From IMG/VR virus record IMGVR_UViG_2850761752_000002: a stretch of DNA of 13,719 nucleotides. One strand, written 5' to 3'. A program made the position numbers. The DNA is from a virus (taxonomy: Duplodnaviria; Heunggongvirae; Uroviricota; Caudoviricetes). The first letter of the stretch is position 1; each line of letters opens with the position of its first letter. This document shows, piece after piece, positions 6,001 through 9,000 of the stretch.

Positions 6001-9000
6001 ATACCTTCCCGTAACAACTGACGCCAGACTTTACGCACACCGTATACCTGATGATTCCCATCGTATACGCGCAGTATCTCTTTCTTCAGCCAGTCATCGC
6101 GCTGCGCACGGGCACTGCGTTTATCAGGATGATGTCGCTGTTGCTGACAGTGGTAATACGTTGACGGGGCAATATGTAGTTCACTGCATACCGGTCCGAC
6201 CCCGTACAGCTTACGCAGCTTATCCAGCAGTGGCATCACTTTTTCCAGAGGCGGTCGAACTCCGCCTTCGCAAAATAAGCGGAAGCCTGGCGAAGGATAT
6301 CGTTACTGCGGCGCAGTTCACGATTTTCACGTTCCAGCTCTTTCAGACGCTGACGTTCAGCGGTGGTGAGCCCGCCATCACCGCCTCCGGTATCCCGCTC
6401 ATGCTGGCGTACCCAGACACGCAGAGTCTCCGGTGTACAGCCAATCTTTGGGGCAATGGAACAAATTGCCGCCCACTGTGAGTCATATTCGCCCTGACTT
6501 TCCAGAACCATACGAATCGCCCTCTGACGGACTTCGGGGGAAAAACGAGTATTTTTAGTCATCCTGTTTACCTCTTTCTCAGGGAGTTTAGTCTCCAGGA
6601 TTCCCGGGGCGGTTCACTGGCGAATAGCGGAATGGCCGGGTGAGGGTGGTGAAGGCCATCTGAGTTCTTTCTTTGTCCAGACAGATAAAGCCAGTATTAA
6701 TGTTGCATACCATCATACAGTTAATCAACAAAAAGAACTTGGCACGTTTGGCGCATTCGACCATGACTGGCATACGCTTGCATTTAAATTTAAGGGCAGT
6801 AACAGCATTAATGTTACTCCGGTGCTTGATGGTGTGGATGGACAGGCGTTTGACCTGGTGAAATGGGCCAATACTGCTAATGGACTCAACAGGTTTGTCA
6901 TTACGGATATTACAGGTAGTGCAGAAACCTACCCTGTACTTATTGATACGGTGGAAGTTAAAGCAAACAAAGCTGGAGCAGCCGCATAATTGCTAAAAAA
7001 AGCCGCCAGCGGCAGGAATGGAAGCTGGCGGAGGTAATCCCAATGGAGAATGTAAAGAAAAGATGCTTTCGTACATTGGTTTTTTAAATGAAAACAATTC
7101 TCATTGTCAACCATAACGGTAAGAAATTATGACATTTATTCATCAGGTGATGCTGTACTTCTGTACGGCGGTCTGTGTGCTGTATCTTCTTTCGGGTGGG
7201 TACAGGGCTGTGCGCGATTTCTGGTGCAGGCAGATTGATAAAAGGGCCGCTGAGAAAATCAGCGCCAGTCAGTCAGCCGGAAGCAAACCCGAAGAACCCG
7301 TTACTCCTTAACAACCCCTTTCAGCGAGAAAATCCCATGTCAGAAATCACATCCCTGGTCACTGCAGAGGCAGTGAAGGAAGTCCTGCGCTCTGAAGAAG
7401 TCCGGAGCGCACTGAAACAGAAACTTCGCCAGAATCTTGAGTCGCGTCTTGATGCAGAAGTGGATGCCATTCTGGATGAGCTGCTGGGCGTAGCAGCGGT
7501 TCCTGAGCCGGAAGGTATCGCGGGTGACGGGAGTGCTTCAGATGGCGGTGAACCTACACCTGACAGCGACATGATGATGTAAGCATGCGCAAGGGACCAT
7601 CGGTGTGTGCCGGTGGTCTTTATATTGTTGTGAGCTTCCGGATTGCGGGAGACGGGGTATGTACCAGATGGAAAAAATCACAACAGGTGTGTCATACACC
7701 ACGTCAGCGGTGGGAACGGGCTACTGGTTCCTGCAGTTGCTGGACAGGTTTTCCCCGTCTCAGTGGGCGGCAATAGGCGTGCTGGGGAGTCTGTTGTTTG
7801 GGCTGCTGACATATCTGACTAACCTGTATTTCAAAATCAGAGAGGACCGTCGTAAGGCGGCGCGGGGAGAGTAAAGCGATGAAGAAAAAATACGAACTGG
7901 TTGTTAAAGGGATAAATAATTACCCGAATAAGATTACTGTTACTGTGGCACTGGAAATTGGTGGGTATCCGTCACTGTTGTTGCCAGATGTGGCGATTAG
8001 TCTTGACCGTACTGAAGATGCCACGCTGGAGTTTTACGAAGCTGAGGCGAAAAAGCAGGCGAAGCAGTTTTTCATGGATGTTGCTGCCGGGTTATGTGAA
8101 GGGGATGGTCCGTTGCCGGAAAAGCGCCCCGTAATTTTAGAGGCGCAGGATGTGTTGATAACCTACAGAGGAAAACTACCGGGAATAATTACTGGTTCTC
8201 TGAAGACTCCACCGCTGGCCTGAAGACTTAACATATCCAGGGATTTGAAATCGATAAACCCTGATAAATATCCATGAACACCAAAATCAAATACGGCCTG
8301 TCGGCTGCCGTTCTGGCGCTGATTGCCGCAGGTGCGCCTGCGCCTGAAATCCTCGACCAGTTTCTGGATGAAAAGGAAGGTAACCACACCACGGCATACC
8401 GTGATGGCGCGGGTATCTGGACCATCTGCCGCGGTGCCATCCTGGTGGATAGTAAACCTGTCGTCCCGGGCATGAAGTTGTCGAAGGAAAAATGCGACCA
8501 GGTCAACGCCATTGAGCGTGATAAGGCGCTGGCATGGGTGGAGCGCAATATTAAAGTGCCGCTGACCGAACCCCAGAAAGCGGGTATCGCGTCATTTTGT
8601 CCCTATAACATTGGCCCCGGTAAGTGTTTCCCGTCGACGTTTTACAGACGGATTAATGCTGGTGACCGCAGGGGAGCATGCGAAGCGATTCGCTGGTGGA
8701 TTAAGGACGGTGGCAGAGACTGCCGTATCCGCTCAAATAATTGCTACGGTCAGGTATCCCGGCGAGACCAGGAAAGTGCGCTGGCGTGCTGGGACATCGA
8801 CAGATAAGCAGAATATTTTGCTGAAAATAAGGCATGAGCACGCGGACGGATAACACGAAATCCTGCGAACTGGCGAAACGTAAGTGAATAAAAGTAAAAA
8901 CCCCGTTTGTTGGCACCAGGCGGGGTTTTGTGTTTCTGACCTTGAGTAAGGCAAGGGAGAACATGGCGAAGTATAAACGAATTCTGTTGAGGTTGACCAT

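Follow-up and report, generated by a model that had tools for sequence, protein, structure and literature searches.

What do two small genes placed immediately before a holin gene contribute to the prophage that carries them? The question was raised by a stretch of 13,719 nucleotides from a virus of the Caudoviricetes (IMG/VR record IMGVR_UViG_2850761752_000002), referred to here in its whole length as the window. Both open reading frames (ORFs) start with ATG and lie on the + strand; ORF1 (7129–7311) encodes 60 residues (MTFIHQVMLYFCTAVCVLYLLSGGYRAVRDFWCRQIDKRAAEKISASQSAGSKPEEPVTP), ORF2 (7337–7582) encodes 81, and a spacer of 25 nt separates them. Coordinates and sequences agree with the initial annotation, in which ORF1 was described as a protein with one transmembrane (TM) helix and ORF2 as an acidic protein. 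The location given there, between a disrupted esterase gene and the holin gene, was likewise recovered, with the remnant of a NanS-p-type esterase gene upstream and a holin of the phage 21 (P21) type downstream. The neighbourhoods of related genes in other phages suggest an answer for ORF1, pointing to its family, DUF1378, as an accessory of the lysis machinery.

Neither ORF had been assignable to a family by eye; Pfam places both. ORF1 was matched to DUF1378 (PF07125) with 122 bits, residues 1–58 of 60 aligning to positions 1–58 of the 59 in the model, and ORF2 to DUF826 (PF05696) with 149.4 bits, residues 1–75 aligning to all 75 model positions (1–75). The gathering score is 25 bits for each of the two models. 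In PHROG, ORF1 matches phrog_494 (130 bits) and ORF2 matches phrog_311. The function of all of these families is listed as unknown. DNA 100% identical to both genes is present in several complete Escherichia coli genomes, where RefSeq names the products 'DUF1378 family protein' and 'DUF826 domain-containing protein'. Both genes are already catalogued in common DUF families, and the residual interest lies in their function.

Related loci were taken as the best matches of the scans, and the counts obtained from them describe a sample and are not a census of nature. The DUF1378 ORF is intact in 172 of 176 related loci and the DUF826 ORF in 142 of 143. Pairwise ratios of nonsynonymous to synonymous substitution (dN/dS) were calculated by the Nei–Gojobori method across the collected loci. 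They are 0.21 for DUF1378 and 0.32 for DUF826 as a whole (0.275 for its helical N-terminal domain and 0.38 for its tail); the value for the holin is 0.05 for comparison, and the same DNA read in the two shifted frames gave 1.1–2.2. Conservation in related prophages and a coding signature, both named beforehand as tests on which the two genes could fail, were found. ORF1 and ORF2 are genuine, conserved late-region prophage genes under purifying selection. Individual loci depart from the intact form: the 5′ end of DUF1378 is lost in L006, L030 and L038, and DUF826 is shortened to 63 residues in L161.

A longer candidate gene, a 135-residue ORF with a GTG start (7175–7582, + strand), overlaps ORF1 in another frame and runs on into ORF2. 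It was rejected because selection within 7129–7311 follows the ORF1 frame, and its extension ahead of ORF2 is taken as non-coding. Databases hold 'DUF826' proteins of 134–141 residues, and the family phrog_8301, that are built on an over-extended GTG start. Natural fusions of DUF1378 and DUF826 (phrog_8301, 139 residues; P0065, P0254 and P0255) were considered as evidence of partnership and also rejected, the apparent fusions being either mis-called upstream GTG starts in another frame or frameshift read-throughs on single contigs.

Gene order was determined by comparing a reference protein set against the 176 loci and the window, and three architectures were distinguished. Class 1 (116 loci and five incomplete ones, the window included) has the order esterase, DUF1378, DUF826, P21-type holin, DUF1327 (optional), lysozyme and Rz. 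Class 2 (22 loci) lies at a prophage end with no holin nearby, in the order tail-fibre chaperone, Gin, esterase, DUF1378, DUF826, Com and Mom. Class 3 (33 loci and one metagenomic phage contig) has the order holin, endolysin, Rz/Rz1 and DUF1378, with neither DUF826 nor an esterase, and is found in prophages of Klebsiella/Raoultella, Pantoea, Mangrovibacter and Erwinia type and in Stenotrophomonas phage BUCT709.

The lysis cassettes of class 3 end with DUF1378, and at 28 of the 33 loci there is a 4-nt overlap between its ATG and the stop codon of the preceding spanin ORF. The holins of these cassettes belong mostly to PF04971 (P21 S); two loci carry PF16080 (HP1 type) and three carry PF05106 (lambda S type), the last together with an endolysin of glycoside hydrolase family 19 (GH19). 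A PF11860 muramidase is encoded on the metagenomic contig. The cassettes vary in their endolysins (several types) and spanins (two types), and 30 of the 34 combine a class II holin with a phage lysozyme; a class II holin of P21 type is also present at every lambdoid E. coli locus. From the three holin families in class 3 we infer that DUF1378 is tied to lysis cassettes in general, mostly those with a class II holin and a phage lysozyme, and not to a single partner. Selection on DUF1378 holds across contexts (dN/dS 0.14–0.24, with 0.14 in class 3). The suggestion in the initial annotation that the pair might be a lysis regulator thereby gains indirect support, mainly for ORF1, from the terminal position of its relatives in the 33 loci and the contig.

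DUF826 follows DUF1378 directly on the 3′ side, at a distance of 19–40 nt, in 139 of the 139 loci in which both ORFs are intact, and it was never found apart from DUF1378 wherever upstream sequence existed. In E. coli/Citrobacter-type loci with enough upstream sequence the esterase gene always precedes the pair. A second esterase-like segment is present between DUF826 and the holin gene in L161, L164 and L172.

The two families differ in their range. Word-indexed protein searches returned DUF1378 and DUF826 matches from E. coli and Shigella only, and scans of species-representative genomes found nothing, so that the taxonomic range was taken from cluster look-ups instead. These gave distant DUF1378 members in Klebsiella/Raoultella, Pantoea, Mangrovibacter and Erwinia tracheiphila, and placed DUF826 in Escherichia, Shigella and Citrobacter, the last being the farthest. 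A 50-residue protein of phage BUCT709 (62 bits on DUF1378) was found via tblastn. Of the 1.84 billion representatives covered by an exhaustive HMMER search, 34 belong to the family. Among 5426 complete E. coli genomes, 1015 contain the pair (median three copies, at most seven); so do 306 phage records, mostly of Shiga toxin (Stx)-converting phages, the count being the same for DUF1378 and for DUF826. The copies in prophage Sp5 of strain Sakai are ECs1210 (DUF1378) and ECs1211 (DUF826).

ORF1 is predicted to be a bitopic inner-membrane protein with its N-terminus outside and its C-terminus inside (N-out/C-in) and about four residues in the periplasm. The orientation was assigned by the positive-inside rule from the charge distribution: no charge is found ahead of the hydrophobic segment (residues 1–5), the charge over residues 25–45 is +3, and the net charge is +2. 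The best 19-residue hydropathy window covers residues 3–21 (mean Kyte–Doolittle value 1.93). The predicted TM segment spans approximately residues 3–24 and ends in a conserved SGGY motif; the prediction continues with a basic amphipathic helix and then a short tail that is disordered. AlphaFold2 (AF2) models residues 2–49 as one continuous helix with a predicted local distance difference test (pLDDT) score of 70–81 and a disordered end. The family motif, a hydrophobic helix at the N-terminus that ends in (A/S)GG(Y/W) and has x-x-(I/V)-R after it, reads LLSGGYRAVR in ORF1. The E. coli DUF1378 alignments show no variation at G23, G24 or Y25; distant members carry GGW.

ORF2 is predicted to be a soluble, acidic, helical protein with a disordered tail. 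Its net charge is −11, of which −7 falls within residues 52–81. The AF2 model contains a helix at 10–17, a long amphipathic helix at 20–49 and the disordered tail, with pLDDT above 90 for residues 21–50 and below 50 for residues 56–72. The tail is rich in Asp, Glu, Pro and Gly and ends in the hydrophobic tripeptide MMM; most of the 44 unique DUF826 variants end in MMM, TMM or TML. Total length varies from 79 to 127 residues and tail length is very variable, and an acidic, Pro-rich tail is present in all variants. Searches of PDB sequences with both proteins gave only matches with E above 0.1, Foldseek against the PDB with DUF826 gave none, and neither protein was matched in NCBIfam or by the 5027 defence-system models of PADLOC. 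Structure prediction, which had been proposed as a check, thus yielded helices with disorder and matched no known fold.

Gene fission, in which DUF826 would correspond to the C-terminal extension of the 80–88-residue Klebsiella-type DUF1378 proteins, was considered and found unsupported. The Klebsiella-type extension is mildly acidic (median charge −3 after residue 40), and an hhalign comparison of the class 3 extension with DUF826 did pick the expected helix; the match (P 0.007, 20 columns, probability 5.6%) was not significant. Short DUF1378 forms without DUF826, which exist in Stenotrophomonas and Erwinia, also count against fission.

The pair appears to be bounded on its 3′ side. A GC-rich hairpin with a 13-bp stem (7592–7621), followed by a T-rich tract, occupies 7592–7631 on the + strand and begins 9 nt past the ORF2 stop codon. 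The hairpins at this site were folded sequence by sequence and compared with shuffled sequences; that of the window has a folding energy of −19.5 kcal/mol (z = −4.6). Of 30 unique variants, 29 have a hairpin and a T-rich tract after DUF826 (−13.6 to −20.3 kcal/mol, z −2.6 to −6.8); the stems are of at least six unrelated sequences, and the holin-less loci of class 2 keep the hairpin as well. RNAalifold on a MAFFT alignment of the post-DUF826 region returned no consensus structure, the unrelated stems being out of register. The hairpin looks like an intrinsic terminator that closes the unit of esterase, DUF1378 and DUF826, and by gene order and folding these genes and the hairpin behave as a single block that can be transferred and whose end resembles a terminator.

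The half of the intergenic region next to the holin gene (7632–7658, + strand) behaves differently from the half next to ORF2. It is nearly invariant and, in 23 unique intergenic regions aligned and folded with RNAfold, moves with the holin and not with ORF2. It contains a small hairpin, CUUCCGG-AUUG-CGGGAG, beside the Shine–Dalgarno region. Lambdoid S genes are subject to dual-start control, and for this reason a role of the small hairpin in the choice of the holin start codon may be considered. On the 5′ side of the pair, directly past the esterase stop codon, an A7 tract is followed by a hairpin (GCCGCCAGC...GCTGGCGG; 6995–7031). It is kept with compensatory changes in both the lambdoid and the gin–com/mom contexts (57 unique upstream regions aligned), and its minus-strand reading resembles an intrinsic terminator. 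A conserved GTCAA(C/T) box was noted about 20 nt 5′ of the ORF1 start codon. Consensus promoter scans of the window gave no site ahead of ORF1 on the + strand, and elsewhere weak sites at the frequency expected from shuffled sequences.

Taken tentatively, the reading we favour is that DUF1378 is an accessory inner-membrane component of lysis and DUF826 its lineage-specific cytoplasmic partner, the pair travelling with the esterase gene in front of the holin gene. ORF1 would be a non-essential part of the lysis programme at the cytoplasmic membrane, with its basic amphipathic helix in the cytoplasm and about four residues facing the periplasm. It would make no hole itself and would tune the timing or efficiency with which the pinholin is triggered and the signal-anchor-release (SAR) endolysin is set free. 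Most of the systems that employ DUF1378 would be of this pinholin and SAR-endolysin kind. In the Escherichia/Shigella/Citrobacter lineage, ORF2 would act as the cytoplasmic partner or adaptor of ORF1. The pair would be packaged with the NanS-p esterase as a unit closed by its own terminator-like hairpin; in lambdoid late operons, Q-modified RNA polymerase is expected to read through terminators, and here it would continue through the hairpin into the holin gene. The membrane topology, any contact between DUF1378 and DUF826 and any effect on lysis are inferences from sequence and context.

Several observations weigh against this reading. The literature holds no experiment on DUF1378 or DUF826. 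The pair is dispensable for the neighbouring esterase and holin: in phage cdtI a P21-type holin gene directly follows a methylase gene without the pair, and in about 45 phage records the esterase gene is followed by the holin gene with no pair between (351 records with the esterase, 306 with the pair), as in JLK-2012, where the holin gene follows after 158 nt. A P21-type holin reportedly also works without the pair in published phage 21 constructs. The hairpin after DUF826 would cut the pair off transcriptionally from the holin gene unless transcription is antiterminated. DUF1378 and DUF826 subtypes are mixed between loci, and no co-variation signal for a contact was obtained. The 22 holin-less gin–com/mom loci keep both genes under purifying selection (dN/dS 0.24 for DUF1378 and 0.14 for DUF826), a context compatible with cargo as well as with lysis.

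Such a cargo role is the main rival. Lambdoid morons are independent cargo units with their own terminator. Here the esterase gene and the pair would form one mobile transcription unit, and the two small proteins might serve the esterase or the fitness of the lysogen and not lysis, for example by holding, regulating or delivering NanS-p at the membrane. We regard this as rather unlikely, while granting it much of the evidence: the esterase gene immediately upstream of the pair in E. coli/Citrobacter-type loci, the three genes kept together without a holin in class 2, the hairpin conserved as a structure in both contexts, and, as in morons, presence/absence polymorphism and movement en bloc to a different prophage context. 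A further point is the 3.3-fold lower signal of ECs1211 on leaving exponential growth in a microarray study of uninduced Sakai cultures (PMC2241611), the single entry that locus-tag searches of the literature returned and a weak result, obtained with cross-hybridising copies. The records with an esterase and no pair speak against a cargo role, as do the 34 lysis cassettes that carry DUF1378 with no esterase at all; unlike a moron, DUF1378 is in other genera integral to the lysis operon through the 4-nt spanin overlap. The scans gave no convincing promoter for the unit. In phage phi24B the esterase (gp84) is a capsid decoration, attached by its own DUF1737 domain, and the small ORFs are unmentioned there as partners (bioRxiv 10.64898/2026.04.10.717836). 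The same overlap, as a sign of late, lysis-linked expression, argues against the improbable idea that the lysogen makes the pair to protect its membrane, by superinfection exclusion or a similar block to the entry or development of other phages. That idea would be suited by the small size and bitopic form of the membrane protein, by the terminator-like hairpin that the unit has for itself, and by a presence/absence pattern among similar prophages with several copies per genome; the defence-system models and the promoter scans gave it no support.

Two further proposals concern one protein each. That DUF1378 is itself a holin, or an antiholin specific for one holin, would agree with its small size, membrane location, charged cytoplasmic tail and place in lysis cassettes, and is nevertheless very improbable: a recognisable holin is already present in each cassette examined, co-occurrence with PF04971, PF16080 and PF05106 is unexpected of a specific antiholin, and the protein has a single TM segment and almost no periplasmic part. 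The initial annotation had also offered a DNA mimic or an anti-restriction factor, and an anti-defence role for ORF2 belongs to the same idea. Small size and a net charge of −11 are what such a protein might show, and the proposal otherwise gained no support. The gene lies in the late region beside the lysis genes and not in an early or leading region; seven of the 11 net negative charges fall in the predicted disordered tail, the folded part being a single amphipathic helix; no known mimic, defence family or solved protein was matched in Pfam, PADLOC, NCBIfam, PDB sequences or Foldseek; and DUF826 is always coupled to the gene of a membrane protein. We consider this the least credible of the explanations and scarcely worth entertaining.

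The favoured lysis-accessory role can be set beside known small lysis proteins, of which releasin and Lcc6 have been established as lysis accessories by experiment. The Mu releasin gp25 (DUF2730) has 99 residues, a type I (N-out/C-in) topology and four periplasmic residues, is encoded after the spanin genes and is needed for the SAR endolysin to be released; some members of its family also occur with non-SAR endolysins (PMC9239132). ORF1 resembles it in its single TM segment, predicted N-out/C-in orientation, about four periplasmic residues and basic junction between membrane and cytoplasm. DUF1378 is also encoded just after the spanin genes, but only in Klebsiella-type cassettes; unlike the releasin gene, ORF1 of the window lies upstream of the holin gene, in a locus that has a holin, and not shortly downstream of the endolysin gene. 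The chain of releasin includes an anionic cytoplasmic domain of 73 residues; ORF1, by contrast, has a net charge of +2, and the acidic part, if relevant, would be the separate ORF2. No DUF2730 match was found in Pfam, even at E values up to 10 for distant DUF1378 members, and hhalign of DUF1378 profiles against Mu gp25 (P 0.25 and 0.28) aligned only the AGG motif, so that homology to releasin was not detected, a negative for the lysis reading.

Lcc6 of the Shewanella phage LambdaSo (SO_4795) has 65 residues, with a TM segment at residues 5–22 and a cytoplasmic tail of about 43 residues; it is harmless alone and needed for pinholin-dependent depolarisation and lysis in a phage that uses a pinholin and a SAR endolysin (bioRxiv 10.1101/2024.01.23.576932). 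Compared by description only, ORF1 is similar in its 60 residues, its TM segment at about 3–24, and the P21-type holin and phage lysozyme encoded downstream. It differs in that the lcc6 gene lies well away from the lysis cassette and is indispensable there, while the DUF1378–DUF826 pair is dispensable in related phages. No 65-residue protein was present among the 34 family representatives of the HMMER search. The likeness of ORF1 to releasin and Lcc6 lies in architecture and context, not in a demonstrated membership of their families. In phage T4, a small membrane-anchored protein (RI) and a helical cytoplasmic protein of about 82 residues (RIII) jointly modulate the holin. The pairing of a small membrane protein with a small helical cytoplasmic protein is alike in the two cases; unlike RI, which acts in the periplasm, DUF1378 has almost no periplasmic part, and hhalign of DUF826 against RIII (P 0.48) detected no homology, a second negative for the lysis reading. 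The only paper found that names both DUFs places them between nanS-p and S and gives no function (PMC10462455).

The remaining features of the window complete the picture of the locus. The 71-residue class II holin (7659–7874, + strand; PF04971, 110.6 bits) belongs to the phage 21 S family and carries the dual-start motif MYQM.... It is followed by a DUF1327 gene (7879–8223, + strand; PF07041), which is optional, being present in about half of the related loci; other insertions also occur between the holin and lysozyme genes. The phage lysozyme of 177 residues (8274–8807, + strand; PF00959) has a weakly hydrophobic N-terminal segment, YGLSAAVLALIAAGAPAP, which is typical of SAR endolysins. Its SAR character is probable by comparison with the R proteins of 933W and P21, which are known as SAR endolysins (PMC9239132). 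An Rz-type i-spanin (9288–9686, + strand; PF03245) follows.

Upstream of the pair, the SASA/NanS-p-type esterase gene is severed by insertion sequence (IS) elements. Its 5′ part (3889–4965, + strand) contains the DUF1737 and SASA domains by Pfam, its 3′ remnant (6822–6989, + strand) gave a 100% tblastn match to the esterase C-termini of related loci, and IS3-family elements separate the two. An IS629-type copy (orfA of 108 and orfB of 296 residues; 5349–6562, − strand) interrupts the gene; a second copy with the same ORF lengths (12506–13719, + strand) lies in the opposite orientation. In Sakai Sp5 (L196), IS629 interrupts the esterase gene in much the same way. An additional IS3-family orfA (5012–5464), an IS1 fragment (1681–2073), an IS66 transposase gene (11053–12327) and a truncated methylase gene are also present. 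The integrase gene (1–1107, − strand) lies unusually near the late genes, and the window is therefore judged to be a heavily decayed prophage.

Some observations in the other loci are recorded here. At a prophage end, between a Gin-type invertase and com/mom, L089–L092, L128–L136, L142, L145–L147, L152 and L154 carry as an insertion DUF1378, DUF826 and an esterase that has no DUF1737 capsid-binding domain. At least 1000 contigs, Citrobacter rodentium among them, show the DUF826 variant of these loci (MPEIKG...). A small membrane protein of family DUF7940 is encoded between endolysin and spanin in L099–L101 (approximately 3972–4467) and in L177 (5185–5463); these cassettes, of the lambda-S-type/GH19 and the muramidase kind, likewise have DUF1378 as their last gene. 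In phage BUCT709 (vB_SmeS_BUCT709, OM816835; L082), an unannotated holin of the P21 S family (2721–2915, + strand, 73 bits) lies directly before the lysozyme gene and is overlapped by an annotated 'hypothetical protein' on the opposite strand; the same locus carries a Tad2-like (Thoeris anti-defence) gene at 6931–7152.

The lead that emerges is DUF1378 as a recurring fifth gene of lysis cassettes. It is possible, although doubtful, that the family represents an unrecognised class of small inner-membrane lysis factor for many Enterobacterales phages with a pinholin and a SAR endolysin; in Stx and other lambdoid E. coli prophages it would act with DUF826 as a dedicated acidic partner in the cytoplasm and help to set the timing of lysis, and with it that of toxin and virion release. 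If so, it would be a third, sequence-unrelated case, after Mu releasin and LambdaSo Lcc6, of a small lysis protein omitted by models built on holin, endolysin and spanin. The pair sits in the late region of Stx prophages, between the toxin and esterase genes and the holin gene, and DUF1378, with DUF826, would then influence the moment at which toxin and phage are released, provided that it modulates pinholin triggering or the freeing of the SAR endolysin.

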